A stretch of 64,000 nucleotides of DNA, taken from an uncultured Solirubrobacterales bacterium. GTDB taxonomy: Bacteria; Actinomycetota; Thermoleophilia; Solirubrobacterales; Solirubrobacteraceae. Below are positions 19,076-64,000 of this stretch, piece by piece. The first letter of the stretch is position 1; every line of letters starts with the position of its first letter. The notes below the pieces were generated by a model. That model saw only the letters and a list, made by a program, of their open reading frames with translations, searched no databases and was not told the DNA's origin. The DNA is taken from assembly GCA_963715925.1 (NCBI GenBank), contig OY970282.1, positions 365,891 through 429,890 on the forward strand, read 5' to 3'. Made by a program: the position numbers and the translations under genes.

Positions 19076-19129
19076 CAAGAGGGTGGCGCAGTCGGCCGCA
19101 GGCCGACAAGCCGTGCCCCTCGCTCTCGA
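19076..19129 (+). repeat. Intergenic copy of a 54-bp palindromic (REP/RPE-like) element
   Basis: Ungapped 39/44 identity (element positions 3-46) to the reverse complement of 38733-38786. Inner hairpin GTCGGCC-GCA-GGCCGAC. Confidence 0.8.
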
Positions 19130-19131
19130 TC

Positions 19132-21132
19132 ATGCCCAACGCGCTCGCCCACGAGACTTCGCCGTACCTGCGCCAGCACGCCTTCAACCCGGTGGACTGG
19201 CTGCCCTGGGGGCCCGCGGCGCTGGCGGCTGCCCGCGAGCGCGACGTGCCGCTGCTGGTCTCGATCGGGTACTCCTCCTGCCACTGGTGCCACGTGATGG
19301 AGCACGAGTCCTTCGAGGACCCCCGCGTGGCGGCGCTGATGAACGAGGAGTTCGTGTGCGTGAAGGTCGACCGCGAGGAGCGCCCCGACGTCGACGCGCT
19401 CTACATGGAGGCCGTGCAGGGGATGACCGGCCGCGGGGGGTGGCCGCTGAACGTCTTCCTCACCCCCGAGCAGCTGCCCTTCTACGGCGGCACCTACTTC
19501 CCCCCGGAGTCCCGCCACGGGATGCCCTCGTGGAGCCAGGTGCTGCAGGCGATCGCCGAGACGTGGCGCGAGCGCGCGGCGGAGATCCGCGCGGGGGGCG
19601 AGCGGATCCGCGCGCAGCTTTCCGGAGGCGCGCGCCTGTCACCCTCCGCGGAGCCCTTCGACGCTGGTGCGCTGGACGTCGCGGTAGCGCGGCTGCGAGA
19701 GTCCTTCGACCCGGTCAACGGCGGATTTGGAGGCGCGCCGAAGTTCCCGCAGGCCCCCGTCGTCGAGTTCCTGCTGCGCCACGGCGAGCGCGAGATGTCG
19801 CTCGCGACGCTGCGCGCGATGGCGCGCGGGGGCCTCTGCGATCAGCTCGGCGGGGGCTTTCACCGCTACGCGGTGGACGCCTCGTGGACGGTGCCCCACT
19901 TCGAGAAGATGCTCTACGACAACGCCCTGCTCGCGCGCGCGTACCTGCATGGGCACCGTTTGGGCAACGGCGCTGATGGTGAGGGCACAAACGGCGAGGA
20001 GGACCTGAGTGGGAGCGAGGGCGGCCGGAGTCCGGGCAGCGGGGAAGACTTCGCCCGCGTGTGCCGTGCAACGCTCGACTGGGCGCTGCGCGAGATGCGG
20101 GGGCCCGAGGGCGGCTTCTACTCGGCGCTCGACGCCGACTCCGAGGGTGTGGAGGGCCGGTATTACGTGTGGACGGCGAAGGAACTGCAGGACATCCTCG
20201 GCGAGGACGCGGACGCCGCGATCCGCTGGTTGGGCGTCAGCGAGCAGGGCAACTTCGTCGATGGGGTGGGTGGGCCTCAAATCTCCGAGCCGGGGCTCAA
20301 CGTGCTCACCGACCGAGGCCGTGGGCGGGCACCCGATCACATCACCCGTGAGCGCATCCGCGCGCGGCTGCTCGAGGCACGCGCGGCTCGCACCCGGCCC
20401 GGCCTCGATGACAAGCGCCTGACGAGCTGGAACGCGCTGATGATCGCCGCGCTCGCCGACGCGGGGGCGGTCCTGGGGGAGCCGTGCTACCTCGACGCGG
20501 CGGAGCGCTGCGCCGAGTTCGTCCTGCGCGAGCTGCGCGACGGCGAGGGGCGGCTGCTGCGCACCTACAGCGAGGGCCGCGCGCGGATCGGCGCGTACCT
20601 GGAGGACCACGCCTTCCTGCTGGAAGCGACGGTGGTCCTCTTCGAAGCGAGGTGCGAGGAGCGCTGGCTGACCGAGGCCCGCGCGCTCGCTGAGCAGACG
20701 ATCGAGCGCTTCGCCGACCCCGAGCGCGGGGGTTTCTTCTCAACGCCCTCCGACGGCGAGGCGCTGATCGCGCGGCGCAAGGACCTCGAGGACTCGCCGA
20801 TCCCCTCCGGGGCCTCCTCGGCCGCGTTCGGCCTGCTGCGTCTCGCGCAGATCTCAGGCGTCGAGCGCTACGAACAGCACGCGCTGGGGGTATTGCGCCT
20901 CATGCACGAGATCGCCCCCCGTCATCCCGCGGCGTTCGGCCACCTCCTGCAGGCGCTCCAGCTGCACCTCTCACCGGCCGAGGGCCTTGCGTGTGCCACG
21001 CCGCTCGCCCGTTCGGCAGCCACCGACCCAGAAAGCGCCACCGCCACGCCGCCCGCCGGAGCACCTTTAGGTGCGGAGGCTGATCCAGCGGTCAGAGAAT
21101 CGACAGGTACCGGTCGAGCTCCCACTGGGTGA
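19132..21132 (+). CDS. Thioredoxin-domain protein, YyaL/SSP411 (DUF255) family
   Basis: [65 protein letters not shown]. Confidence 0.92.
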
Positions 21133-36156: not shown

Positions 36157-38268
36157 GTGCTGTTGGGCGTGGACGTAGGCGGAACCTTCACGGACGCGGT
36201 GCTCGTGGTCGAAGAGCGCTCCCCCGGCGGGCGCATCGCCCAAGCGGGCACGCGCTCCGCTGCGGGCGGGTCCTCCGTCGCGATGTACACAGCGAAGGTC
36301 CCCAGCACCCCCGGGGAGCAGTCCCGCGGGGTCATGGAGGCGGTGCGCTTGGTCCTTGCAAGCGCGAGCGCCCAGCCGTCGGAGGTGGAGCGCTTCGCGC
36401 ACGGGATGACGGTTGCAACCAACGCCCTGCTGGAGTTCTCGGAGGCCCCCCCGGGGGCGCCCGGGCTCCCGATCACGGCGTTGATCGCCACGGAGGGCTT
36501 TACCGACGTGGTCGCCCTCGGCCGCCAGGCGCGGGCGAGCCTGTACCGGCTGTGCGAGCGGGGGCCCACCCCCCTGGCCCCGCCGGAGCTGCGCTTCGGG
36601 GCGCCCGAGCGGATGACCCCCGACGGCCCCCTGCGGGCGCTCGATCCCGAGCGGGCGCGAGCGCTCGTGGAGGAGCTGGCCGAAGCGGGACGGGCAGGGG
36701 CGGGCATCGAGTCAGTGGCGGTGGTGCTGCTGCACTCCTACGCGCACCCCGAGCACGAGCGCCTGGTGGGGGAGCTGATCGCCGAGCGCCTGCCCACGGT
36801 GCACGTGTCGCTCTCGCACGAGCTCGTCGGCACGTTCCGCGAGTACGAGCGGGCGGCGACCACCGAGGTGGACGCGGCAGTCTCCCCGCTGGTGGGCGCC
36901 TACCTGCGCCGCCTCGGCGCGGAGGCCGACACGGTGGGCCTGACGCGGCCCGCGGTGATGCAGTCCTCGGGCGGGCTCACCGACGCGCAGGGCGCGGCGG
37001 CGCACGCGGCGTTGACGGTGCTCTCCGGTCCCGCGGGCGGCGTGCAGGGCGCGCTCGCGCTGGCGCGGCTGGCGGGGGAGCGCGACGTGGTGTGCTTCGA
37101 CATGGGCGGCACCTCGTGCGACGTGTGCGTGATCGAAGGGGGCCGCGTGGCGGAGACCGCGGAGGGCGTCGTGGCCGGCCGGCCGCTGGCGTTGGCGATG
37201 CTCGACATCCACACCGTCGGCGCGGGCGGCGGCTCGATCGCGTGGCGGGACCCGGGGGGAGCGCTGCGCGTGGGCCCGCGCTCCGCGGGCGCCGACCCCG
37301 GCCCGGCGTGCTACGGGCGCGGCGGGGAGGACCCGACGGTGACCGACGCCAACCTGCTGGTGGGGCGCCTGCCCGCGGACGCCCCGCTCGCGGGGGGCCT
37401 GGAGCTCGACCGCGACGCCGCCCAGCGCGCGATCGCGGGCCTTGCCGTCACGCTCGGGCTCACCGCGCAGCGCTGCGCGGAGGGGATCGTGCGGGTCGCG
37501 GAGGCCGAGATGGCAAGGGCGCTGCGCACGATGACCGTTGAGCGCGGCATCGACCCCCGCGGCTTCGCGCTGATGCCCTTCGGCGGCGCGGGCCCCCTGC
37601 ACGCGACGGCGCTCGCACGGGCGCTGGGGATGCGACGCATTCTCTGCCCGCGGGCATCCGGGGTGCTATGCGCGCTCGGCCTCGCCGCCGCGGCGCCCCG
37701 CCGGGACGCGGCGCGCACGGTAATGCTCGCCGGGGAGGCGCTCGACGCCGGGCGCCTGACCGCGGAGCGCGACGCGCTGGTGGCGCGGGCGTGCGCGGGA
37801 TTGAATACCCACCCACCCACGCCCGAGCGGGTGGCGGTCCGCTACGAGCTGCGCTACCGCGGACAGTCCTTCGAGTTGGCGGTCGACGAGGACGGCGAGC
37901 CTGCGGAGATCGGGCGGCCGAGCGCCCCGACGGGGACGGAAGCGGCGCGGCCATCCACGGGCGACCCCCGTCCGGCGCCCCACCCGGACGCCCTCCGCGA
38001 GGCGTTCGCGCAGGCTCACGAGCAGCGCTACGGCTACCGCGACGACGGCGCGGAGGTGGAGCTGGTCACGATCCGCGCCTCCGCGTGGGGCGCCGCCCCT
38101 CGGTTGTCCCTGGCTCCAGCCGCCGGCGAGCCCGCGCCGGGCACCAGGATCGAGGGGCCCACGGTCTGCGCGCTGCCGGGGTCCACGCTGTTCGTGCCCC
38201 ACGGCTGGGAGGGCGAGGTCGACGCCCAGGGCACGGTATGCCTGCGCGACGTAAAGGAGCAGACGTGA
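36157..38268 (+). CDS. Hydantoinase/5-oxoprolinase subunit A
   Basis: GVDVGGTFTD, HGMTVATNA, LSGPAGGV, DMGGTS, GAGGGSIA, GPACYG, FGGAGPLH. Confidence 0.92.
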   Translation: MLLGVDVGGTFTDAVLVVEERSPGGRIAQAGTRSAAGGSSVAMYTAKVPSTPGEQSRGVMEAVRLVLASASAQPSEVERFAHGMTVATNALLEFSEAPPGAPGLPITALIATEGFTDVVALGRQARASLYRLCERGPTPLAPPELRFGAPERMTPDGPLRALDPERARALVEELAEAGRAGAGIESVAVVLLHSYAHPEHERLVGELIAERLPTVHVSLSHELVGTFREYERAATTEVDAAVSPLVGAYLRRLGAEADTVGLTRPAVMQSSGGLTDAQGAAAHAALTVLSGPAGGVQGALALARLAGERDVVCFDMGGTSCDVCVIEGGRVAETAEGVVAGRPLALAMLDIHTVGAGGGSIAWRDPGGALRVGPRSAGADPGPACYGRGGEDPTVTDANLLVGRLPADAPLAGGLELDRDAAQRAIAGLAVTLGLTAQRCAEGIVRVAEAEMARALRTMTVERGIDPRGFALMPFGGAGPLHATALARALGMRRILCPRASGVLCALGLAAAAPRRDAARTVMLAGEALDAGRLTAERDALVARACAGLNTHPPTPERVAVRYELRYRGQSFELAVDEDGEPAEIGRPSAPTGTEAARPSTGDPRPAPHPDALREAFAQAHEQRYGYRDDGAEVELVTIRASAWGAAPRLSLAPAAGEPAPGTRIEGPTVCALPGSTLFVPHGWEGEVDAQGTVCLRDVKEQT

Positions 38269-38398: not shown

Positions 38399-40297
38399 AT
38401 GACCCTCGACCCGATCGAATTGCAGGTCCTCACCGGGGCGCTGCGGGCCGCCTGCGAGGAGATGGGCGCCGCGCTGGTACGCGCCGCGCACTCGCCCAAC
38501 ATCAAGGAGCGCCGCGACTGCTCGACCGCGCTGTTCGACGCGCGCGGGCAGATGGTGATGCAGGCCGAGCACATCCCCGTGCACCTCGGCTCGATGCCCG
38601 CCGCGGTCGCCGCCGTGCTCGGCGAGGACCACTCTGCGGGGCACTCGTGGGTGCTCAACGACCCCTTCGCCGGGGGCACGCACCTGCCCGACATCACGCT
38701 CATCACCCCGGTGCTCGTGGACGGTGCTCTAACTGAAAAAGAGGGGCCCAGCTCGCCGGCCTCCGGCCGACTGCGCCACCCTCTAACTGAAAAAGAGGGG
38801 CCCAACCGAAGCCGAGAGACACTCGCCTCCGGCGAGCATCCCCGTTTCGGCCAGCCGGCCTCCGGCCGACTGCGCCACCCTCTAATTGGCTTCGCCGCCT
38901 CCCGCGCCCACCACGCCGACGTGGGCGGGCGCGTGCCGGGGTCGATGCCCGCCGACTCGCGCACCCTGGAGGAGGAGGGCATCGTGATCTCACCTCGCCC
39001 CGCGACCCCGGAGGCGATCGAGGAGATCGTCGCCCTGATGCGCCAGCCCGAGGAGCGCCGTGCCGACCTGCGCGCCCAGCTCGCCGCCAACCGCATCGGC
39101 GCCCTGCGCCTCACCGAGCTCGCGCGGGAGGGCGGACAGCCATTCCTCCGCGAAGGGTTCGACGCGGTGCTCGACTACGCCGAGCGCCGCACCCGCGCCT
39201 GCCTCGCGGCGCTCCCCGACGGGACCCGCGAGGCGCAGGACGTGCTGGAGGCGATCGAGGGCGACCTCGTGCTGCGCCTGCGTGCCACCGTGGAAGGGGA
39301 GCGGGTGGTACTCGACTTCGCCGGCTCCGCCCCCCAACACTCCGGCAACCTCAACTGCCCCCTCGCCGTCACCCGCTCGGCGTGTTACTTCGCGGTGCGC
39401 GTCCTCACCGACCCCGACATTCCTCCCTGCGCCGGCGCCTACCGGCCCGTGGAGGTGCGCGTTCCCGAGGGATGCCTCTTGAACGCGCGCGGGGTGGGCG
39501 GATCCGAATCCCTCGGGGCGGGCGGGTCCAAGGCCGCTCCCGCGGTGGCCGCCGGCAACGTCGAGACCTCCTCGCGCGTCGCCGACCTCGTGCTCGCCGC
39601 CTTCGGGCGCGCGCTGGGACAGGGCACGATGAACAACCTGACCCTCGGGGACGAGCGCTTCAGCTACTACGAGACCCTCGGGGGCGGCCAGGGCGCCTGC
39701 CCCGACGCCGACGGCCCCGACGGGGTGCACGTGGCGATGAGCAACACCCTCAACACCCCCGTCGAGGCGCTCGAGCGCGAGCTGCCGCTGCGCGTCAGGA
39801 GTTACGCGCTGCGCCGCGGCTCCGGGGGCGCGGGCGCCTACCGCGGCGGCGAGGGAGTCGTGCGCGAGATCGAGGCGCTGCGCGAGATGACCTTCTCGCT
39901 GATCACCGAGCGCCGTCGCCACCCCCCGCCGGGCGCGCACGGCGGGCAGCCCGGGGCGCGCGGGCGCAACCTGCTGATCGCGCCTCCCACCCTCGACACC
40001 CCCAACACCACCGGCACCCCCGGCACTCCCGGCACCCCCGGCACTCCCGGCACCCCCGGCACTCCCGGCACCCCCGGCACTCCCGGCACCCCCGGCACCC
40101 TCGACACCCCCGCCGAGACCCCCAACCACGACGCCCACCGACGGCACGACACCCACACCGCCGCGACGGAGGCACTGGAACCAGAGAGCCGCGAGCTGCC
40201 CGGGAAGACCACGGGGGTCCTGCGCCCGGGGGAGCGCCTGCGCATCGAGACCCCCGGCGGAGGGGGCCATGGCCCCCCTGAGCGGCCCTCCACGTGA
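38399..40297 (+). CDS. Hydantoinase B/5-oxoprolinase subunit, with two in-frame insertions
   Basis: HSPNIKERRDCS, HIPVHLG, NDPFAGGTHLPD, HHADVGG, GQGTMNN, NTLNTPVE, ETPGGGG. Confidence 0.92.
   Translation: MTLDPIELQVLTGALRAACEEMGAALVRAAHSPNIKERRDCSTALFDARGQMVMQAEHIPVHLGSMPAAVAAVLGEDHSAGHSWVLNDPFAGGTHLPDITLITPVLVDGALTEKEGPSSPASGRLRHPLTEKEGPNRSRETLASGEHPRFGQPASGRLRHPLIGFAASRAHHADVGGRVPGSMPADSRTLEEEGIVISPRPATPEAIEEIVALMRQPEERRADLRAQLAANRIGALRLTELAREGGQPFLREGFDAVLDYAERRTRACLAALPDGTREAQDVLEAIEGDLVLRLRATVEGERVVLDFAGSAPQHSGNLNCPLAVTRSACYFAVRVLTDPDIPPCAGAYRPVEVRVPEGCLLNARGVGGSESLGAGGSKAAPAVAAGNVETSSRVADLVLAAFGRALGQGTMNNLTLGDERFSYYETLGGGQGACPDADGPDGVHVAMSNTLNTPVEALERELPLRVRSYALRRGSGGAGAYRGGEGVVREIEALREMTFSLITERRRHPPPGAHGGQPGARGRNLLIAPPTLDTPNTTGTPGTPGTPGTPGTPGTPGTPGTPGTPGTLDTPAETPNHDAHRRHDTHTAATEALEPESRELPGKTTGVLRPGERLRIETPGGGGHGPPERPST
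38727..38885. mobile_element. 153-bp in-frame insertion of two tandem palindromic elements (54 + 99 bp) bounded by CTCTAA
   Basis: CTCTAA at 38727, 38781 and 38880. Both units start CTGAAAAAGAGGGGCCCA and end GCCGGCCTCCGGCCGACTGCGCCACCCTCTAA. Removing them restores VLVDGALIGFAASRAHHADVGG. Confidence 0.8.
39989..40111 (+). repeat. In-frame 9/18-bp tandem repeat encoding (PGT)n
   Basis: Alternating GGCACCCCC/GGCACTCCC units, flanked by the direct repeat ACCCTCGACACCCCC. Confidence 0.9.
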
Positions 40298-51875: not shown

Positions 51876-52397
51876 ATGATGTTCTCGACCAAGGCCGAGT
51901 ACGGCGTGCGCGTAATGGTCGCCCTGGCGCAGCGGGCGGCGCAAAGCCCCGCGGGCGAGGAGCCGGTCGTGCCGCTCGCGGAGATCGCCGAGCGCGACGG
52001 GCTGCCGCTGGCCTACCTAGAGCACCTGGTGGCGCGACTGCGCAAGGCGGAGCTGATCGAGAGCCGGCGGGGCTCGCGCGGGGGATATATGCTCGCACGC
52101 GCGCCGCAGGAGATCACGATGGCCGAAGTGGTCGAGGCACTCGAGGGGTCGATCGCGCCGATCGAGTGCATCTCGCAGGGCCCGGACGGGAGCATCGTGT
52201 GCTCGCGCGAGTCCGATCCTAACCATGTCTGCCCAACCAAGCTGCTGTGGACACGGGTGCGCTTCGCGATCGTGAGCACCCTGATGCAGACCACGCTCGC
52301 CGATCTGCTGCCGGCCGAAACGGGGATGCCGGCCACAGGCCGGCGTCTACCGGCTTCGGCACCGCTCGCGGCAGAGCCACTGCCGACAATCGCCTGA
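51876..52397 (+). CDS. Rrf2-family Fe-S transcriptional regulator
   Basis: FSTKAEYG, YLEHLV, SRRGSRGGY, three Cys (IEC...VC...VC). Confidence 0.93.
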   Translation: MMFSTKAEYGVRVMVALAQRAAQSPAGEEPVVPLAEIAERDGLPLAYLEHLVARLRKAELIESRRGSRGGYMLARAPQEITMAEVVEALEGSIAPIECISQGPDGSIVCSRESDPNHVCPTKLLWTRVRFAIVSTLMQTTLADLLPAETGMPATGRRLPASAPLAAEPLPTIA

Positions 52398-54693: not shown

Positions 54694-57471
54694 CTAGAAG
54701 CCGCGCTGCTTCCCGGCGTGCTTGCGCCGCTTGGCGTGCCGCTTCCTGGCGTGCTTCTTCTTGACCGCTTTCTTCGGGCAGCCGGTGACCGTGACCTTGG
54801 TGGGCCGGGTGATCGTCGCGCCGTTCTGGGCGATGAATTCAGTCGGCATCTCCAGGTTGCTCTTGCAGAAGCTCCCATGCGCCGCGAGCGCCGAGTACGG
54901 ACCCTGCGGCAGCGTCAATTCGAACAGGCCGATCGGGACATCCGGGATTTCTTCGAACGTGGAGCTCGTGATCCCCGTCGTCGCGCTGATGAACGTCGAG
55001 CCGACCAAGTCGATCCTCACACCCGCGCCCTGCAACACGATCTCTAGCGACGGGAACGCCTGCCCACCATGCGAGACAAAGACCGCGGGCCCCACCAGCG
55101 GGGTACCGAGCACCGGCGTGAGGACCAGCGCGTGCCCCACCACCGACGCCGCCGGGCACGCCGCGGGATCCGTTTCAAACGTCACCGCTAGACACGCCTT
55201 CTGCAAAGTCGTCAACCGCGCCGGCAGCTGCTTGGGGAGTTCGACTTTGACCTTCTCGATGTTCGACTGCGAGCTCGCCTGGTTATGCCCCAGCGCACCC
55301 GCCGGATACACCACCTTCGCGGTCAGGCTCGCGCCATCCGCCCTGGAGTTCCGCCCCGACGTGGAGGCCTGGAAATCGGGGTTGAATACCAGGCTCCGGC
55401 ATGAGCCGACCTGGAAGTGGCTGTACAGCGCGGCGGTTGCGCCTTCGGTGCTGTACGCGGTCCCTGTGAACGCCAGCGGCGCGCAGCTCGTCGGGTTGAA
55501 CATGAATTCCGGCCGGTCGATCACCACATCGATATCGCGGATGTCCGCCGGCACACCGTTCAGGATCGTCGGTAGCGTCGCCGGGTTCGTCGTGATCGTC
55601 AACCGCGAAGTCCGCGGGTCCACTTCGATCCTTGCACGGACCACCACCACACCCAGATTGAACGGGCCCGCGACCACCGGCACCACGATCGCCAGCCCAT
55701 ACGGCGCGCCGTCGTAGGGGCCCGTCAGGTAGATCGGCGCCGGCGGATAACCAGGCTCCGGGACGAACAGCGGGAACGGACCCGGGCCCGCACCGACGAC
55801 CGTGTGCCCGATCTGCGACGCCGCGGGGCACGCACCCTGCGCAGCCTGCGGTTCTTCGCAGGGCGCGACCGTGCTGATCTTCCCCAACAGACCCTCCGGG
55901 GTCTTGAACTGCAAACCCGCGATCCGCTGCTCGCCGTCTTCGCGCTGCAACAGCATCGAGAACCCGGTGTACCCGCCGGCCTGGTCGCTCGTCGCGCCCG
56001 CGGTCAGCGTCGCGGCGAACGGCAGCTGCGTAGCCTGCGAGACACACGCACCGCCACCCACGCCGGCGGTGACCGGGAAGTTATCGGTCGAGTGCACGTC
56101 GGCTACGAACGGTGTGCTCCAGGGCGTGAAGTCTGAGCTGGTGCCGTATACCCCGCACGCGGGGGGCGTCACTAGCGCCGCCTTCGGGCCGCCGGCGAAG
56201 GTGATGTTGACGCTGCTGAGCGGGACCTGCGGCGTTTCAGCGAACGTCGCGGTCACCTGCCCGGTGTGTTCGTTGAGCTGCACGCTACCGACGAGCTTTA
56301 CGTACTGGCCCTCCGCGTAGGCGGAGAGCAGCAGCTTCAGGTTCGGCGGGGAGGATTGCAGCACGTACACGCTGCCTTCGAGCTTTTCCTTCAGCAGCGG
56401 CGTGGAGATCACGTCCGTCCCGACTTTCGAGGACGCCGGGCACGACGGCGGACCGGTCGTCCCGACGCCATCTTCGGAGAACTGGCAAGCCGCTAGCCCC
56501 GCCGCCGTACCGGGGTTGACCGTGACTCCTTCCGGGAGGACCACCGTCGTCGTCTTGATATCTGACTGCGACACGCCGACCGGGTCCGTGATGCCTTCCT
56601 GGGGCTCTTTCAATTCGACTGAGAGCCCGGTCGGGGTTTCCGCGTCGGCGGAGCCCGGCGTGACCGCGATCGACGGCGTGAAGCGCAGGTGTTCGCAGCC
56701 CGTGAACCCGAACGGCAGCCCTTCGCTTTCGCTCGGGAAGCTGACTTCTGAGAGTTCCGTTTCGTGGCCCCAGGCATCCCCGGTCGCGGTGGTCGTCACT
56801 GGCCCTCCGCACGACGTCGGCATCGTCCAGAAGGGTTTCCCGTCCGGGAACCCCCAGACGCGGACGAGGAAGTGGACGAACTCAAATTCGGGGATGTTGG
56901 GGACCCTCACCGTGATCCCATAATCGCCGTTGGTGCGCGCCGCCGTATTGAAGAACGTCCTGATGCCTTTGAAGACGACGCCGAGCTGCGCCGGCTGGTT
57001 GGCGGGAGGAACCAAGTTCCACAGGGCAAGCGTCGGTTCGGTGATTTCCGCGATGTGCACGGTGACGGTACCGACCTGTGAGTCGGGGGGACAGTCGCCC
57101 TCTTCGCCCAGGTCGAGCTGTTCGCGGGTGCACTGCGGCAGCGTGTCGGGGGCGGCGACCAGGCCCACCGGCAGGTTCGTCACGACTTCCCTGACCTCCC
57201 CGACCGGTTTTTCGTTTTCCGGCTCGTGGGTCTTGAAGTAGATGTTGAAGGTCGCTTCGCTGGGGTGCGAGCCCGCCTGCGAATCGACCGATCCGTCCGC
57301 GTTAGTGAATGTGCTCTGGAAGCCTGTGAACCCGAACCCCAACGGCGTGAGCGTGATCGCCGCGCTGGCGCCGCTCGCCGCCACCGCCGAGGCGCCCACC
57401 GCGAGCAGGGCCGCGGCCGCCGCCGCGTATACCCTGCGCCGTCCCGCACGCACCCGCGGGATTGCGCTCAT
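54694..57471 (-). CDS. Large secreted Cys-rich repeat protein, family A (about 925 aa), basic tail
   Basis: Signal peptide; QAGSHP, CPASSKVG, YLTGPYDGAPYG, FNPTSC, RLTTLQKAC; tail KKKHARKRHAKRRKH. Confidence 0.8.
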   Translation of the reverse strand: MSAIPRVRAGRRRVYAAAAAALLAVGASAVAASGASAAITLTPLGFGFTGFQSTFTNADGSVDSQAGSHPSEATFNIYFKTHEPENEKPVGEVREVVTNLPVGLVAAPDTLPQCTREQLDLGEEGDCPPDSQVGTVTVHIAEITEPTLALWNLVPPANQPAQLGVVFKGIRTFFNTAARTNGDYGITVRVPNIPEFEFVHFLVRVWGFPDGKPFWTMPTSCGGPVTTTATGDAWGHETELSEVSFPSESEGLPFGFTGCEHLRFTPSIAVTPGSADAETPTGLSVELKEPQEGITDPVGVSQSDIKTTTVVLPEGVTVNPGTAAGLAACQFSEDGVGTTGPPSCPASSKVGTDVISTPLLKEKLEGSVYVLQSSPPNLKLLLSAYAEGQYVKLVGSVQLNEHTGQVTATFAETPQVPLSSVNITFAGGPKAALVTPPACGVYGTSSDFTPWSTPFVADVHSTDNFPVTAGVGGGACVSQATQLPFAATLTAGATSDQAGGYTGFSMLLQREDGEQRIAGLQFKTPEGLLGKISTVAPCEEPQAAQGACPAASQIGHTVVGAGPGPFPLFVPEPGYPPAPIYLTGPYDGAPYGLAIVVPVVAGPFNLGVVVVRARIEVDPRTSRLTITTNPATLPTILNGVPADIRDIDVVIDRPEFMFNPTSCAPLAFTGTAYSTEGATAALYSHFQVGSCRSLVFNPDFQASTSGRNSRADGASLTAKVVYPAGALGHNQASSQSNIEKVKVELPKQLPARLTTLQKACLAVTFETDPAACPAASVVGHALVLTPVLGTPLVGPAVFVSHGGQAFPSLEIVLQGAGVRIDLVGSTFISATTGITSSTFEEIPDVPIGLFELTLPQGPYSALAAHGSFCKSNLEMPTEFIAQNGATITRPTKVTVTGCPKKAVKKKHARKRHAKRRKHAGKQRGF

Positions 57472-57547
57472 GACCGACCCACCCTTCCGGCTTGCAAGCC
57501 CGGCTCCGCTCATGACCGCTCACCCTTCCGGCTTGCAAGCCCGGCTC
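57466..57547. repeat. About 42-bp duplication of the family B-to-A gene junction
   Basis: GCTCATGACCG...CACCCTTCCGGCTTGCAAGCCCGGCTC at 57466 and 57508. Confidence 0.85.
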
Positions 57548-60032
57548 GCGCTGTGCCCGCCCGCGCCCGCTTGGCGTGCCTCGCCCCACCGGCCTTCCTG
57601 TGCCTCTTGGCCCTGTGCCGCTTCTTCGCCGGGCGCTGCTTCTTCGTCGTGCGCTTCTTCGGTGGCGGCTTCGTTGCTTGCGGCTGTGGCGGCGGGAAGT
57701 TGCCGACGCCATCGAAGGTCACGCTCGCGGGGGCTTCGAAGGCCGTCGGCGGGAATGGCGCTCCCTGACAGCCCGTGCCCGTGCACTGCGCTTCGGACGG
57801 CGGCCGCATACCACCGACGTGCGCATCGTAGACGTCCAGGTTGTCGTTGCCGTCCTGCTGCACGAGCTGCGCGCGGGTCACGAAGAACACGTCGTCGCCG
57901 CTGGCGCTCGCGCCGATGAAATACGACGGGTTGGGGCTCGCGCCGCCCGAGAGCAAAAAGATGCAGCCCTTGCTGTTCAGGCAGCTGCCGGTGCCCTCGC
58001 GCTCCCACTCGTACACGTCCACCTTGCCGTTGGTGTCTTCCGGGACCAGCGCTTCGTTGGTCTCAAAGAACACACGGCTGCCGTCATCGGTGATCCACCG
58101 CGGCTGATAGGTGGGATGGTGCCTCCCGCTGGTGGGCAGATAGCTCACCCCGGACGGCGGTTCCCCGGAGGGATTGCACGACGCGCACGAGAGCTGGCCC
58201 GATACCGCGTCGTACACGTACACCTCGCTCGAGCCCCTGCTGTCATAGCCGGTGGGGTTGGTTTCCGACTCGAACACGACAGCCTGACCGTCCGGCGTCA
58301 CCTCGGCCGTACGGACTCCCAGATCGGGCCACCAGTCACCGACATAGAAACAGGCGTAGGTGACTTCGTTGAAGTCCGACGTGGCGATGAAGCTCGTCGT
58401 GCCGTCGTGGCTCAGGTAGATGTTGTGCTGGCCGGCGGTCGCGCCCGCGGCGAGCTTGGCGTCAGCGACGAAGTAGACGTATTCGCCGTTTTCGCTCGCG
58501 CCGATCACTCCCTGCACTTCGCCGCCGGGCGCGAGATCGCTCGTCTGTTCGTTGTTCACGTCGAACTCATAAAGCGCTCCCGCCTTGATGAAGAACGCCC
58601 GCGAGCCGTCCGCGCTCGCCGCCCAGTATTCCCCGCCGCCTCCGACCGCCGCGTCGACCTGAACCGTCTTCGCCGCGGGGGTGCCGCCGTTCTCCTGGAC
58701 GAACAGCCTTGTCGTCCCCGCCGGATTTTCCGCTGTCACCGCGGTACTCAGATCGGTCCAGAAGACACGCGAGCCATCCGCGGAGATGACACCACTCAAG
58801 TTAGGCCGTTTTGAGGCGAACCCGCCGCATCCGCTGGGTTCGCCGGGCTCCGGCGGGTAGCTGCCGAACGTCGCTTCCGGCGCAGGCTTGCCGTCCGGCA
58901 GCACGTTGACCGAGGTCAGCTGGCCTTCGACAGAATCGTAGAGATTGTTGTTTCCCGCTGGATTGTATTCGGCTTGCGCCGTCAGGGCGTCGTCCTCCTC
59001 GAACAGGACATGACTGAAATCCGAGGAGGCGCCCGCGTATAGGGGCAAGTATGTAGCTCCAAATCCATGTTTTTCTTCTTCTTTCAGCCAGCTTCCGCCA
59101 GCCCCTGCTCCTTCTTCGATCCAACCATATCCATCTTTGGGACCGCGATGTGGCGGTTTCTCCGCGATCAGCGCCCGGTAGCTGCCGTCGCTGTTCTCGC
59201 GCGCATAGAGTTCGTGGTATGCAACCTGCCCCCCCGGCGCAAGCGGAGGCTTTTCCGAGTTGAAAAAGCCGCCCTCGGTGAGGGCCCCGACCGACAGGTC
59301 GGGGGAGAATTCCTCATATTCCGGGAGGACGTAGCCGAGCGGCGTGAGGTTCTGAGTCTTCCAGCCGTTCGCGGTGCGGGTCGACAGGTACTCGTTGCCA
59401 CCGTCTTCACCGACATTGCCGTCTCCTTCGAAGGACGGATCGCCGGCGTACGCCACCCCGTCGCCGTCGACCGACACCTGGAATGGTTCTTCGGTGACGG
59501 TTTCCCCTTCCACGGGGGACCTATGGTTAAAGGTGTTTCCCTGCGGCACGTAGGCGTCCGCATTGTTGTTTTCGGGGGGGGTGACCATTTCGAAGATACG
59601 GTTGTCGGGCAGGGCAGCGCTGGATGCCGGGTATGTGGTAAAGGCCGTGTCGGGGCCGTCCGTCGTGCCGCCCGCGCCCGTCGTATCGGCCGCGACGAAA
59701 CGGAAGTGATATTCGGTTTCCGGTTGCAGACCGCTCAGCAGCGCCCGTGCTTGCACCTGCCCACTCTGTCCTTCAGCGACGCTTACCTGCGCCGTCTTGG
59801 ACCCGTACTGAGCGGTCGGCCCGTATTCGAAGTAGTAAGCGCTCGCGAGCCCTTCGGGTTCGAACTGGGCGCGCACCGTAGCCGCGGCCGAGCCGACTTT
59901 TTCGAAGGTCTCGCTGTTTTCGAGGATCAGCGGTCCGGCTAGCGCCCTCGCGCTCCCGAGCGCGAGCAGGCAGGCGAACGCGAGCAGCACACTCGCGAGC
60001 GCGCAGCGGGCCGTGTGGTGGTGCTGGGTCAT
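57510..60032 (-). CDS. Large secreted FN3 plus beta-propeller-like protein, family B (840 aa), basic tail
   Basis: Signal peptide; YYFEYG...GLQPETEYHFRFVA (FN3-like); repeated S-x-DGSR/VFF blades; tail rich in K/R. Confidence 0.78.
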   Translation of the reverse strand: MTQHHHTARCALASVLLAFACLLALGSARALAGPLILENSETFEKVGSAAATVRAQFEPEGLASAYYFEYGPTAQYGSKTAQVSVAEGQSGQVQARALLSGLQPETEYHFRFVAADTTGAGGTTDGPDTAFTTYPASSAALPDNRIFEMVTPPENNNADAYVPQGNTFNHRSPVEGETVTEEPFQVSVDGDGVAYAGDPSFEGDGNVGEDGGNEYLSTRTANGWKTQNLTPLGYVLPEYEEFSPDLSVGALTEGGFFNSEKPPLAPGGQVAYHELYARENSDGSYRALIAEKPPHRGPKDGYGWIEEGAGAGGSWLKEEEKHGFGATYLPLYAGASSDFSHVLFEEDDALTAQAEYNPAGNNNLYDSVEGQLTSVNVLPDGKPAPEATFGSYPPEPGEPSGCGGFASKRPNLSGVISADGSRVFWTDLSTAVTAENPAGTTRLFVQENGGTPAAKTVQVDAAVGGGGEYWAASADGSRAFFIKAGALYEFDVNNEQTSDLAPGGEVQGVIGASENGEYVYFVADAKLAAGATAGQHNIYLSHDGTTSFIATSDFNEVTYACFYVGDWWPDLGVRTAEVTPDGQAVVFESETNPTGYDSRGSSEVYVYDAVSGQLSCASCNPSGEPPSGVSYLPTSGRHHPTYQPRWITDDGSRVFFETNEALVPEDTNGKVDVYEWEREGTGSCLNSKGCIFLLSGGASPNPSYFIGASASGDDVFFVTRAQLVQQDGNDNLDVYDAHVGGMRPPSEAQCTGTGCQGAPFPPTAFEAPASVTFDGVGNFPPPQPQATKPPPKKRTTKKQRPAKKRHRAKRHRKAGGARHAKRARAGTARAGLASRKGERS

Positions 60033-62815
60033 CGCTTCCTCCTGCGCTTAGCCTTCTGCTTGTGGCGCTCACGCCTGTGCTTTGCGCGCTTGGCTTTCGG
60101 GCAGCCGCTGACGGTGAGCTTGGTCGCCTGGTCGATCACGGCGCCGTTGTGAGCGGCCAGTTCGGTGGGGGCCGTGAGCGCGCCCTTGCAGAGGCTCCCG
60201 TTCGCCGCGAACGCGGAGTGCGGACCCTCGGGGAGCACCAGTTCCAGGGAGGAGATCGGGACGTCGGGGAGCACTGTGAACGCGACCGTCGTCACCTGGT
60301 TCTTGCTGATCGATGTCGTGGCGTCCAGGTCGAGGGTGAGCCCGCCCCCTTGCAGCACGATGTTCAGCGAGGGGTACGTTTCGCCGGTGTGCGCGACGAG
60401 ATACGCGGGGCCGCTCAGCGGGGCTCCCAGTATCGGTGTGGCAGCGCTCGCGTGCCCGACGAGCGACGCGGCGGGGCACCCCGCGGGGTCCGCTTCGAAG
60501 ACCCCAGCAGCGCAGGCCTGCCTCAGCGTCGCCTGGCGCGAGGGCAGCTGCTTGGGCAGCTGCAGCTTGACGCCCCGCAGGTTCGACTGGTTACTCGCGA
60601 GGACCGTCCCTTCCCGGTCGGGCGGATAGGAGATCGTCGCCTGCAGGCTCGCGCCCTGCTGCTTTGAGGTCTTCGCTGAGGTGGAGAGCGCCAGCGAGGG
60701 CGTGAACTTCAGGCTCTGACAGGAGCCGACCCCGAACGGTGTGGAGATCGCGACAGTCGCGCCTTCAACGCTGCTCGCAGTCCCCTGGAAAGACGACGCG
60801 CCGCAGTCGGTCGGGTTGAAAATGAACCCGGGGCGGTCGAGGACCGCATACAGCGTACGCAGATCCAACGGGACACCGTCGAGGATCGTCGGCAGCGCGT
60901 CAGTGGTGATCGTCAGCTGCGCGGTGTGGGGGTCCACTTCGATCCGGGCGCGTAGGACCCTCGCCCCCAGGTCATACGGGCCCGCGATGAACGGCACGAC
61001 GACCGCCAACCCATACGGCGCGCCCTCATACGGGCCCGTCAAGTAGATCGGGATCTGCGCCTGCCCAGGCCCCGGCAGGAACAACGGGTAGCCACCCGGG
61101 CCCATACCAAGAACGGCGTGCCCGACCTGCGAGGCCGCGGGGCACGCGCCCTGCGCGGCCTGCCCTTCACCGCACAACGGGACGCTACCGATCATCCCCA
61201 ACACGCCCGGCGGCGCCTTCACCTGGAAGCCCGAGAGACGCTGCTGCCCGTCGGGGCGCGCCAGCAGAATCGAGAGGCTCGCGAAACCACCCGCGCCATC
61301 GTTGCTGGACCCCGCCGTCAACGACGGTGTGAACGGCGGCGGAAAGACACACGCGCCGCCTCCCGGGCCACGCGTAACTTCGATACTGCTCGTTTCCAGG
61401 ACATCCAGCACTCCGGGTGTCGCCCACGGCGTCAAATCCGAACTAGCCGTATACACGCCGCACGCCCTAGGCGTCACGAGCGCGGCCTGCCCGCCGCCGC
61501 TGAGGGAGACCCGCAGTTCGCTGATCGGCAGCAGCGGCGCCTGCGGGAAAGACAACGTCACCCGGCCAGTCGCTTCATCAAGCGCTACGACACCCCGCAG
61601 CTTCATGTTCACGCCGTCCGCGGACCCCGAGAGCAGCAGCTGCAAGTCGGGCGGGCTCGACGGCAGCGCATACACCCCGCCTTCCAAGGTATCCGGGAGC
61701 ATCGGCGTGGAGATCTGCACCGTCCCGACCTGCGAGGTCCCCGGGCACGACGGCGGACCTTCACCCCCAAGCCCACTCTGCGCCAACGGACACGACACCA
61801 ACCCCTCCGCGCGCACAGGGTCAAACACGAGACCTTCAGGGAGCACCACCGTCGCATCCTGAATATCCGAGGGGCCCAACTGCCCCCCCACCAGCAAGCC
61901 TTCCGGGGGCGCCTTCACATCGAGCGTCAACCCCGTCGCAGTATCCGCGTCTTCGGTTTCCGTCGACACCGACACCGTCGGCGCGAACCTCAAACGATTA
62001 CAACCCCCAACCCCGATCAGGCCACCACCGCTACCCGGCGCTTCGTGCGAGAGGAATGACGCTTCGGCGTACTGCGCTTCGTCCTGCCACGTGTTCGCGC
62101 TCACCGCGAACCCGAGCGGTTCCCCGCACGCGGTCGGCAGCGTCAGGAACGGCCCGCCGAACAGCGTGATCCGCCCCCCCACGATCCGCTTCGAGGGGAG
62201 ATCCGGGAGATCAAGAACGTCCAGATCGATCCCGCCTTCAGCGGGGCTCAGCGCGCCGGTGCGCAGGCTGATGTACGCCAGCACGTCCGCGCCGGCGAAC
62301 CTGAACGCGAGCTCCGCCGGCGCCGACCCCGGCGGGACCATGTTATACACCGCGCTCCGTTCTTCACCAGGCACCCCCGCGGAAACCGTTTCCAGGGCGA
62401 CTTCACCGACCTGATCCCCGCAAGTCCCTTCGTCCAGTTCCCGCCGGGTGCAGCGCCCCACCGCGTCCGCGTTCACGACCAGACCCACCGGGAGGCTCAA
62501 CGTCAAATCCCGCAGATCCCCGCCCGCGCTACCCAACGCTTCACCGAACTGGCCCCGCTGGAGATTCAAACCGAACGAGAAACTCAACGCCCCCGGGTGC
62601 GACCCAGCCTGCATTTCACCTTCCCCGTTTTCACCCAGCGACCCATTGAAACCCCCTTCCCCATTCAAACCCTTGCCTTCTCCACGAAACCCAAACCCAG
62701 ACGGCGTCGCCGGGAACGCGAACACGGACGCCGGGCCGCACAGCGACACCACGAGCAGCGCACACAGCGCCAGCAGGCCGGCGGGCAGCGCCCTACGTAT
62801 GGAGCGCCCGCTCAC
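60029..62815 (-). CDS. Large secreted Cys-rich repeat protein, family A paralog (928 aa)
   Basis: Colinear with 54694..57471 (QAGSHP, YLTGPYEGAPYG, FNPTDC, LRQAC); basic tail. Confidence 0.8.
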   Translation of the reverse strand: MSGRSIRRALPAGLLALCALLVVSLCGPASVFAFPATPSGFGFRGEGKGLNGEGGFNGSLGENGEGEMQAGSHPGALSFSFGLNLQRGQFGEALGSAGGDLRDLTLSLPVGLVVNADAVGRCTRRELDEGTCGDQVGEVALETVSAGVPGEERSAVYNMVPPGSAPAELAFRFAGADVLAYISLRTGALSPAEGGIDLDVLDLPDLPSKRIVGGRITLFGGPFLTLPTACGEPLGFAVSANTWQDEAQYAEASFLSHEAPGSGGGLIGVGGCNRLRFAPTVSVSTETEDADTATGLTLDVKAPPEGLLVGGQLGPSDIQDATVVLPEGLVFDPVRAEGLVSCPLAQSGLGGEGPPSCPGTSQVGTVQISTPMLPDTLEGGVYALPSSPPDLQLLLSGSADGVNMKLRGVVALDEATGRVTLSFPQAPLLPISELRVSLSGGGQAALVTPRACGVYTASSDLTPWATPGVLDVLETSSIEVTRGPGGGACVFPPPFTPSLTAGSSNDGAGGFASLSILLARPDGQQRLSGFQVKAPPGVLGMIGSVPLCGEGQAAQGACPAASQVGHAVLGMGPGGYPLFLPGPGQAQIPIYLTGPYEGAPYGLAVVVPFIAGPYDLGARVLRARIEVDPHTAQLTITTDALPTILDGVPLDLRTLYAVLDRPGFIFNPTDCGASSFQGTASSVEGATVAISTPFGVGSCQSLKFTPSLALSTSAKTSKQQGASLQATISYPPDREGTVLASNQSNLRGVKLQLPKQLPSRQATLRQACAAGVFEADPAGCPAASLVGHASAATPILGAPLSGPAYLVAHTGETYPSLNIVLQGGGLTLDLDATTSISKNQVTTVAFTVLPDVPISSLELVLPEGPHSAFAANGSLCKGALTAPTELAAHNGAVIDQATKLTVSGCPKAKRAKHRRERHKQKAKRRRKR

Positions 62816-63999
62816 GACCGCCCGCCCTTCCGGCTTGCGGGCCGCTTGACGCTCTTGCGCCTCCCAGCAGCGGACTTCCGCGCATGCTTTGCCCGCCTGT
62901 GCCGCTTCGCTTTCCGCTTCGGCTTCGCTGGGGCTTCCACGGACGGCGGGAAGTTACCCACGCCAGCGAACGTCGCGCTCGGCGGCGCCGCAAAGATCGG
63001 CGGCGCGCTCAACGCCTCAACACACGCTTCGCCCGCACATCCCGCCGGGGAGGAAGGCGGCGCGCCTTCGACGCGATCGTCATACAGATGCTCGCTTTCG
63101 TCCTTGTCCTGGGAAACCAGCCGCGCATCGCTGACGAAGAACACGTCATCGCCGTTCGCGCTCGTATCCACCAGGTAGGAGCCCGTACGGCTAGTAGCAC
63201 CCGAGAGCAGATAGTCGCACCCCACGCCTTCCGCGCACGCGCCCTCACCGTCGCGCTCCCACTCGTACACATCCTGCTGGTTATTAGAGTCAGCGGCGAC
63301 CAGCGGCTCGAACGTGTCGAAGAACACACGGCTGCCGTCTTCGGAGATAAACCGCGGCATGTACGTACGACTCCACCCGACCGGCAGATACGCCGCCGCT
63401 TTGACTTTGACTTTGCCGCCCGCGGCTTCGACTTCGCTCACCGGCGGGCGCTCCCCACTACGATCACACGACGCGCAGAACAACCCCCCGCCCGGTTCAG
63501 AGTCATACACGAACACCTCCGCCAGCGCCCGGCCTTCACTGTTTTCACTGTCATAATGGGTGAGCGGGCGCACCGACTGAAAGACAACGCTGCCGCCGTC
63601 CGGGGTGAGCTCCGCCGTGCGATGCCCCAGACCGGGCTCCCAATCACCGAAGCTCCCCGCGCCCACCGCATACTGCGCCGTCCCCTCATCTTCAGGGGAC
63701 AGCGTCGCGACGAACCTCGTCACGCCCGCATGACGCAGATAGAGATTCGGCTGGCCCGCAGTCGGGCTTTCCTGCGTCTGCGCATTTTCGCCCGCCAGCA
63801 CACCACCAGCCACGAAATAAACATAGGAGCCGTCTTCACCGGTTTCGTTGACACCGACCACACCCAGCACTTCCGCATGTGCGGCAGACGTCAAATCCGT
63901 CAGTTCGCCTCCGGGGACATCGTATTCGTAGAGATTCACGCCGCTGCCCGTCTGCGTGCTCGCCGTCAGCCCCGCGGCGTCGCCGTCGGTGAAGAAGAC
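62812..63999 (-). CDS. Family B beta-propeller-like paralog, 5' end outside the window
   Basis: Frame open to the window edge. TAELTPDG, RFISEDGSRVFF, DVYEWER, SANGDDVFF match 57510..60032. Confidence 0.78.
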   Translation of the reverse strand, partial: VFFTDGDAAGLTASTQTGSGVNLYEYDVPGGELTDLTSAAHAEVLGVVGVNETGEDGSYVYFVAGGVLAGENAQTQESPTAGQPNLYLRHAGVTRFVATLSPEDEGTAQYAVGAGSFGDWEPGLGHRTAELTPDGGSVVFQSVRPLTHYDSENSEGRALAEVFVYDSEPGGGLFCASCDRSGERPPVSEVEAAGGKVKVKAAAYLPVGWSRTYMPRFISEDGSRVFFDTFEPLVAADSNNQQDVYEWERDGEGACAEGVGCDYLLSGATSRTGSYLVDTSANGDDVFFVSDARLVSQDKDESEHLYDDRVEGAPPSSPAGCAGEACVEALSAPPIFAAPPSATFAGVGNFPPSVEAPAKPKRKAKRHRRAKHARKSAAGRRKSVKRPASRKGGRS

Positions 64000-64000
64000 C

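Follow-up and report, generated by a model that had tools for sequence, protein, structure and literature searches.

Rickettsia palindromic elements (RPEs; RPE-1 to RPE-10, Ogata et al.) are presented in a 2024 review as the extreme case of in-frame insertion by elements that resemble MITEs, which are miniature transposable elements with inverted repeats (PMC10969869). The colonization of genes in frame by palindromic repeats has so far been regarded as peculiar to Rickettsia, and 25 years have not brought an explanation of how it happens. Here, we describe 153 extra bp in a gene of the hydantoinase B/oxoprolinase (HyuB) family of an uncultured Solirubrobacterales bacterium, found in a 64,000-nucleotide stretch of contig OY970282.1 (positions 365,891 to 429,890, hereafter called the window). 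This additional DNA most probably consists of two units, arranged in tandem, of a selfish repeat that is lineage-specific and non-autonomous, similar to RPEs and to MIRUs, the interspersed repetitive units of mycobacteria.

RPEs and the present repeat families are alike in being dispersed palindromic repeats without a known transposase, many of them lying in frame in unrelated conserved genes (PMC10969869). In both cases the added peptide segment appears compatible with the fold, several families coexist per genome, and copies decay in place. The present element measures ~54 nt (18 codons), compared with ~100-150 bp for RPEs, and the present families are very GC-rich and belong to a free-living soil actinobacterium, whereas RPEs are found in an obligate intracellular alphaproteobacterium. 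Further differences are that nesting always proceeds here in steps of three nucleotides, that gain and loss between sister species are visible and rapid, and that the non-genic copies are tied to start codons. We regard the present families as a likely analogue of RPEs, set beside them by behaviour and not by sequence, and we do not claim membership.

MIRUs are said in the literature to 'insert themselves at start codons' (PMC12548453). They share with the present element its actinobacterial setting, units of ~50 nt, longer variants with internal blocks, tandem arrays, a single orientation relative to the flanking genes, and a location at intercistronic junctions or start codons. Strong palindromy is not a feature of MIRUs, which are described as carrying a small open reading frame (ORF) with a -4 overlap that couples it to the downstream gene; such details were reportedly set out by Supply et al. 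in 1997. To our knowledge, MIRUs are not known for mass in-frame colonization of housekeeping genes. Repetitive extragenic palindromic (REP) sequences and the related BIME and REPIN arrangements are also short GC-rich imperfect palindromes, single or clustered, which generate no target duplications (PMC3733652, PMC3184786) and whose stem is kept by compensatory change. Unlike them, the present element comes without a gene for a REP-associated tyrosine transposase (RAYT) and without a GTAG/CGTC tag, and at least one third of its copies are genic. SPRITE repeats resemble it in their small size, in their transcript similar to an intrinsic terminator and in their insertion into or next to other small repeats; they are intergenic, whereas convergent (3'-3') regions are poor in the present element, which is common in ORFs. 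Altogether, its behaviour is closest to that of RPEs and its non-genic habit closest to that of MIRUs, and it does not conform to the REP/RAYT, classical MITE or IS1111 types. Our literature searches turned up no account of repeats of this kind from Solirubrobacterales or Thermoleophilia, and we consider this repeat a real, well-supported variant of in-frame palindromic repeats, undescribed in the literature searched.

The host gene (38399-40297, + strand) matches the Pfam Hydantoinase_B signature (PF02538, E = 1.4e-160), with the match split into two stretches around the insert. It is present in a single copy in the genome according to tblastn, and its frame is open from 38282, with the ATG at 38399 as the likely start. 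The window reads ...GGTGCTCTAA, followed by unit 1, CTGAAAAAGAGGGGCCCAGCTCGCCGGCCTCCGGCCGACTGCGCCACCCTCTAA, by unit 2, CTGAAAAAGAGGGGCCCAACCGAAGCC...CCACCCTCTAA, and by TTGGCTTC. Unit 1 (38733-38786, + strand) is a 54-nt hairpin element of a family that we call family A; it folds as an imperfect hairpin and reads TEKEGPSSPASGRLRHPL in frame. Unit 2 (38787-38885, + strand) is a 99-nt composite reading TEKEGPNRSRETLASGEHPRFGQPASGRLRHPL, in which a family-A element harbours a nested family-B hairpin (ACCGAAGCCGAGAGACACTCGCCTCCGGCGAGCATCCCCGTTTCG, 38805-38849, + strand); blastn and nhmmer searches identified B as an independent dispersed family. The first 17 nt and the last 32 nt of the two units are identical, with a chance expectation of ≤0.01 as estimated from shuffles, and neither of these common blocks recurs elsewhere in the window. 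The ORF reads across both units, and the inserted peptides directly precede IGFAASRAHHADVGG.

An earlier note, based on the letters of the window, had described this insert as a palindromic element of 54 + 99 bp added twice, in frame, to an oxoprolinase B gene. Translation of the ORF through both units gives the peptides that it quoted, and the features that it listed, i.e. the shared ends with CTCTAA at the boundaries, the sub-terminal AGAGGG/CCCTCT, the hairpins with TCC loops and the additional CTCGCC-TCC-GGCGAG hairpin of the 99-bp unit, are all present in the sequence; the nesting is refined here to a composite of two independent families. The number of insertion events is another matter. 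Both units carry a minority CCC-A variant, so that a tandem duplication, after which the nested module was gained or lost, is no less likely than two insertions; there are two units, but 'inserted twice' is indistinguishable from a tandem duplication. The junction cannot be placed to the base: each of the three boundaries has a CTCTAA, and the codons on either side (GCT CTA / ATT) are unlike those of relatives. The CTCTAA of the left flank (38727-38732, + strand) has the same letters as the right end of family A, while the nearest relative sampled has GTCCTG at this position; it is either target microhomology or a leftover of another unit.

Comparison with the HyuB orthologues of 29 relatives (the present genome being G000 in what follows) showed that the alignment breaks at query residues ~146-150 and ~200 in most of them, as with VLVDGALLGFAASRAHHADVGG in G003 facing VLVDGAL[51 aa]IGFAAS in the present genome. 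The nearest relative sampled, G191, reads GTGGACGGTGTCCTGGTCGGCTTCGCC, which is a clean empty site, as the earlier note had suggested looking for, with a net difference of 153 bp; G194, G233 and over 12 further congeners likewise lack the insert. Among solved structures, PDB 7hk5 and 6yra are the nearest relatives, and the insert position corresponds to a tight turn, FHDGELVGFAG, in 7hk5. In an AlphaFold model of the HyuB host, the only protein modelled, built from 121 homologues (mean pLDDT of 80, pTM of 0.81), insert residues 112-161 have pLDDT values below 50, and the adjoining strands (98-106 and 162-171) are confident. The insert is thus modelled as a disordered excursion from the tip of a beta-hairpin, a surface position that would be compatible with the fold.

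Iterated nhmmer searches of the whole genome (3.83 Mb, 69% G+C, single contig) collected 99 family-A matches at 77 loci, in both orientations, so that the suggested search for further copies gave a clear answer. A family-A core pattern occurs 47 times, and its reversed control 0 times. Unit 1 matches the copy within a Ppx/GppA gene, 3.1 Mb away, at 53 of 54 nt, composites of the unit-2 type (A with nested B) are present at at least 6 further loci, and there are arrays of 3, 5 and 6 units with a 54-nt period. The family-A consensus is nTnGAAAAAGAGGGGCCCGGCTCGCCGGCCTnCGGCCGGCTGCGCCACCCTCTA, and the conserved stretch comprises 54 nt, from ~3 nt before GAAAAAG through CTCT(A/T). It forms an 18-codon GC-rich imperfect palindrome, YTGA-AAAAGAGGGGCCCGGCTCGCCGGCC-NNN-GGCCGGCTGCGCCACCCTCTA. 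In the alignment, 92.7% of the cells of a two-helix hairpin are paired and 17 cells show double-sided changes, values reached by 0 of 500 shuffles; the hairpin is thus maintained via compensatory changes. The reverse strand displays a GC hairpin of -15.5 kcal/mol (z = -3.3) followed by TTTTT. An Rfam scan of the region yielded chance-level matches only and no family. Matches to the element were also found in short-read metagenome-assembled genomes (MAGs) of other studies, which are independent assemblies.

The elements are modular. Between the conserved ends, unit sizes are 54, 75, 99, 120 and 141 nt, all multiples of three, corresponding to the base unit with nested segments of 21 (C), 45 (B), 45+21 or 45+42 (B+D) nt. 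Family B (GACCGAAGCCGGGAGACACTCGCCTTCGGCGAGCATCCCCGTTTCGGCCAGC) is a hairpin of 45-51 nt with 149 nhmmer matches in the genome, most of them outside A elements; 86 of the 149 are nearly complete, the modal length being 51 nt. The small hairpins C and D are also found solo. Short and long forms occur at the same site with identical flanks in the GAPDH gene (G009 and G011, respectively) and in the AroE gene (G000 and G191 for one, G009 for the other), and B has therefore been gained or lost in place at these two orthologous sites. Of note, family B also forms ladder-like arrays elsewhere in the genome (924563-924796, 3692076-3692216 and 2941349-2941471), in which a 27-nt left arm (ACCGAAGCCGGGAGACACTCGCCTTCG) is repeated up to seven times before a repeated 18-nt right arm (GCCAGCATCCCCGTTTCG); some of these ladders lie in ORFs.

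We then considered the copies found inside genes, using our own codon-bias gene caller (2989 genes, 84% coding). Approximately 25 family-A loci, i.e. about one third, lie in frame inside predicted ORFs, with no orientation bias. Ten hosts were confirmed with Pfam: GAPDH, an MMPL transporter, a class I/II aminotransferase, an ATP-dependent DNA ligase, a Wzy-like protein (Wzy_C/TPR), ValRS, a GT87 glycosyltransferase, shikimate dehydrogenase (AroE), Ppx/GppA and UppS. In all ten the element is located within or between domain matches, and GAPDH, ValRS, UppS and AroE are single-copy in the genome. All 11 same-sense genic copies use the sole stop-free frame, EKEGPGSPASGRLRHPL, and antisense copies read as KRVAQPAGGRRAGPLFS, EGGAAGQGPAGRAPLS or RGWRSRPEAGEPGPS; frames containing stops are not used by any genic copy. 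As for family B, 52 of the 77 solo near-full copies lie inside predicted ORFs, and six in-frame hosts were confirmed with Pfam, namely a LeuA-like synthase, an acyl-CoA synthetase, RNase E/G, CTP synthase (two copies), trigger factor and GlmU. Stop-free genic frames and lengths in multiples of three are expected under selection on translated inserts.

The two families are narrowly distributed. The 19-nt core of A was detected in none of 150 genomes drawn from the whole order, three of which belong to the same genus, and the B core, with 87 matches in the present genome, is essentially absent from the rest of this sample. Among 121 species of the genus, ~27 have 15 A matches or more and ~60 have none. 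The nine element-rich species tested group together with 100/100 support in an rpoC tree, in which G191 is the sister of the present genome and G009 branches next. The A and B sequences searched for were found in a single subclade of one genus. The 77 loci, the clean empty sites of orthologues, the many in-frame hosts and the loop modelled at a beta-hairpin tip support the suggestion of the earlier note that a non-autonomous, RPE-like palindromic family of this lineage can add peptide loops to proteins.

Turnover within this subclade was followed with the flanks of ten genic sites as queries in relatives. The GAPDH site is filled in G000, G009 and G011 (long variant), and it is empty in G191, G002, G172, G194 and four element-free species. 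The ValRS site is filled in G000, G009 and G172 and empty in G191 and G194, the ligase site is filled in G000, G009 and G194 and empty in G191, G011 and G172, and the AroE site is filled in G000, G191 and G009 and empty in G194, G172 and G002. At the GT87 site, a fresh copy in G000 corresponds to a decayed long form in G002 and G194 and to empty sites in G191, G009 and G172. The UppS site harbours a fresh copy in G000, decayed copies in G002, G172 and G011 and a ~15-nt footprint in G191, and it is empty in G009 and G194. The MMPL, aminotransferase and HyuB sites are filled in G000 only, the others being empty. Decayed genic copies are still in frame. The footprint in the UppS gene of G191 (L193, G191:C78:2300-2760) consists of just ~15 nt, CAGGGTGG..ATCCCA, and looks like what a hairpin deletion would leave.

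Several of these site patterns cannot be reconciled with one gain and no loss on the rpoC tree. They call for reinsertion at one and the same point, for deletion that is precise or nearly so, or for allele exchange between species, alternatives that a single-gene tree does not separate. Precise deletion is known for palindromic inserts with short flanking repeats. In nine filled-versus-empty comparisons, the junctions show an overlap of 0-2 nt and no fixed target duplication, with a 6-nt imperfect repeat at ValRS; examples are ATCT/CTAGGCG in the Ppx gene and GGA/CTAG in the AroE gene, both with a 2-nt overlap, and an insertion flanked by GGG(T/C)GG in the ValRS gene. The targets resemble the CCCTCT end of the element at HyuB, Ppx, MMPL and ValRS and not at GAPDH, ligase, aminotransferase and GT87, and microhomology with that end is only a lead.

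The non-genic copies follow rules of their own. We classified the 53 non-genic A loci on the strand that reads as a hairpin followed by a T-run. The downstream gene is co-directional at 46 of them (p = 4e-8), and in intergenic regions between co-directional genes, 30 elements run along the flanking genes and 6 are opposed to them (p = 7e-5). Divergent regions harbour 16 loci, and convergent regions a single one, compared with 9.6 expected by length (p = 3e-4). At ~25 non-genic loci a start codon is found no more than 25 nt from the end of the T-run, and ~12 upstream genes stop at a TAG that is the first triplet of the element itself on the T-run strand. The second family-A copy of the window (19078-19122, - strand; nhmmer E = 1.2e-10) is of this type: it lies outside genes, and the end of its T-run abuts the ATG of a gene at 19132-19134 on the + strand. 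No ATGA/TGATG stop/start overlap was seen at the inspected non-genic A junctions, where start codons are predictions.

This arrangement gives the strongest of the competing explanations its substance, namely that the element is primarily a host regulatory device (a terminator, an attenuator or a 5'-leader hairpin) and that its genic copies are accidental by-products. The GC hairpin followed by TTTTT on one strand, the orientation bias towards downstream genes and the proximity of ~25 loci to start codons are what such a device would display. However, the single convergent locus, in the very context where terminators are expected, as opposed to 16 divergent ones, is at odds with that proposal, and restriction to one subclade with variation between sister species fits a parasite better than a conserved regulator. 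We consider this explanation unlikely.

The element is called mobile on the basis of its distribution and of the filled-versus-empty comparisons, as our searches of RAYT, IS110, IS630 and long elements found no mobilizing enzyme or autonomous parent. A conventional possibility is that it is an ordinary MITE moved in trans by a resident DDE/DEDD transposase of the IS630 or IS110/IS1111 type, for which AGAGGG/CCCTCT could serve as sub-terminal inverted repeats. Candidates are at hand. The only high-copy insertion sequence (IS) of the genome is a 1139-bp IS630-family element encoding a 365-residue transposase, with 10 identical copies (genome positions 95348-96486 and nine sites outside the window), indicating recent activity, and with ends CTAGTGTCGTG.../...CACGACACTAG. 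The genome also harbours nine IS110-family genes (PF01548). Nevertheless, the ends of the IS630-family element are unrelated to those of family A, and its TA duplication was not seen; the filled-versus-empty overlaps of 0-2 nt do not correspond to any fixed duplication. All 14 genomes tested contain IS110-family genes, even those that are element-free, and no such gene comes within 3 kb of a copy of A or B, so that the IS110/IS1111 lead of the earlier note is not supported. In addition, no long element with A ends was detected, as left and right A ends are never paired at 0.2-6 kb. Mobilization as an ordinary MITE is therefore rather improbable.

Another proposal concerns the genic copies, which might not be translated at all, being bypassed by the ribosome or removed from the RNA. 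There are precedents for ribosome skipping in the 'byp' GC-hairpin elements of yeast mitochondria and in gene 60 of phage T4, and stable hairpins within single-copy essential genes would suit this idea. Neither lengths in multiples of three nor open frames would be needed in that case, and yet the genic copies are all in frame and stop-free, and decayed copies are still in frame. We hold such a bypass to be very improbable.

Barely credible is a REP/REPIN system, in which the hairpins would be spread by a RAYT transposase of the Y1 HUH type: short, GC-rich, dispersed and at times tandem imperfect palindromes without target duplication call it to mind, but the Y1/RAYT transposase signature PF01797 has no match in the present genome, although controls responded, and within the genus it was found in just 4 genomes out of 121, two of which lack the element, with no tracking of element load, which largely refutes the RAYT lead; the element lacks a GTAG/CGTC-type tag, with end profiles YTGA..AAAGAGGGG and CCACCCTCTA, and one third of its loci are genic. 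No replichore bias of the copies, as would accompany single-strand transposition of the IS200/IS605 type, was found with a GC-skew profile that is irregular. Cumulatively, the GC skew is lowest at ~1.50 Mb and highest at ~0.18 Mb, delimiting very unequal arms, which reflects either a weak skew or a rearranged single-contig MAG.

Equally hard to credit is the idea that the HyuB loop is merely a hypervariable, slippage-prone linker without a mobile element, its likeness to other loci being secondary. The turn is a general insertion hotspot: only ~50 of the 121 closest database homologues have the compact loop, ~70 have inserts of 3-56 residues of many, unrelated kinds, and several of these contain tandem units of ~18 residues. 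Even among the relatives, G002, G009, G172 and G200 harbour other, unrelated inserts at the same turn, 20-25 residues long in G002 and G009, and the two units of the present genome are themselves in tandem. Against this idea, unit 1 is nearly identical to a copy 3.1 Mb away and shares its sequence with 77 loci, and the nearest relative has a clean empty site. Slippage probably accounts for the tandem arrangement only, and the insert of the present genome is clearly a copy of the genome-wide repeat, hotspot notwithstanding. As candidates for decayed copies, the insert of G002 is marginal (score of 36 for a null maximum of 34) and that of G009 shows no similarity. Other homologues (including P0008, P0009, P0015, P0024, P0027, P0078 and P0109) have other recurring peptides at the beta-turn, e.g. 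...DDRSASGERRDRADGRGGGGAGEGRQ..., with tandem 18-residue units in P0078, which suggests that different repeat families of other Solirubrobacteraceae hit the same loop.

We thus return to the reading of the 153 bp as two tandem units of a non-autonomous selfish repeat. Copies would be made by a trans-acting function, or by replication or repair on an extruded hairpin, leaving no target duplication, and tandem arrays would grow by slippage. Among genic copies, survivors would be the ones that fell into open frames at surface loops able to tolerate them; they would be transcribed and translated with the host protein, yielding a disordered loop of 16-19 residues, or 33 residues for the composite. 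Copies may be lost by deletions promoted by the hairpin or by short direct repeats, or they may decay in place. Outside genes, the element would follow an upstream stop codon, supplied by its own TAG, and precede the next start codon, oriented to give a hairpin and a U-run; attenuation or termination may be its role there, or it may simply be tolerated.

Several points weigh against this reading. The genome is a MAG (93% complete, 3.6% contamination), and the compared genomes are MAGs as well. The gene calls are our own, and the Pfam check covered 16 hosts (10 for A and 6 for B). The translation of the inserts is deduced from frame and stop statistics and from single-copy hosts. Neither a mobilizing enzyme nor an autonomous parent was found in the searches described above, the species tree is that of a single gene, rpoC, and repeated gain and loss could be simulated by recombination between species. 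Finally, the HyuB loop is hypervariable family-wide, so tolerance there says little about targeting.

A broader, more tentative proposal, which we regard as possible though doubtful, is that these nested hairpins represent a class of selfish DNA specialized for translated and translation-start regions. Such elements would be codon-phased, every module being a multiple of three, kept stop-free in those frames that are read, and inserted and precisely removed at the same sites without the known transposase families, possibly by host replication or repair acting on extruded hairpins; they would thereby generate and erase surface loops in essential enzymes across a lineage. With ~25 A loci and ~50 B copies within genes of one genome according to our own gene calls, the scale in this free-living soil member of the Actinomycetota is comparable to or larger than that in Rickettsia. 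The coexistence of fresh, variant, decayed, footprint and empty states in congeners makes rates of gain and loss, target choice, the mobilizing function and the effects of loop insertion testable with comparative and population genomics. When these MAGs are annotated automatically or their proteins modelled by homology, unexplained loops of 17-50 residues and shifted stop and start codons will be encountered.

The window contains additional features of interest. A solo family-B copy (52313-52359, - strand; nhmmer E = 3.8e-8) lies in a weakly scoring ORF of 173 residues. The gene upstream of the HyuB gene encodes its partner HyuA, the hydantoinase/oxoprolinase A subunit (36157-38268, + strand; Pfam Hydantoinase_A and Hydant_A_N). 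HyuB itself has a second lineage-specific insert near its C-terminus (window positions 40010-40099, residues ~524-598), a (TPG)x9-10 tandem repeat within ~65 additional low-complexity residues that the homologue consensus does not have; in the model, residues 545-587 have pLDDT values below 50. Lastly, window positions 54694-64000 belong to a segment of ~14 kb (genome positions 420584-434833) that has a copy of 94-95% identity directly downstream (436245-450507) and further copies of 77-84% identity at 0.545-0.575 Mb and 1.367-1.380 Mb, and it looks like a multi-copy gene cluster.

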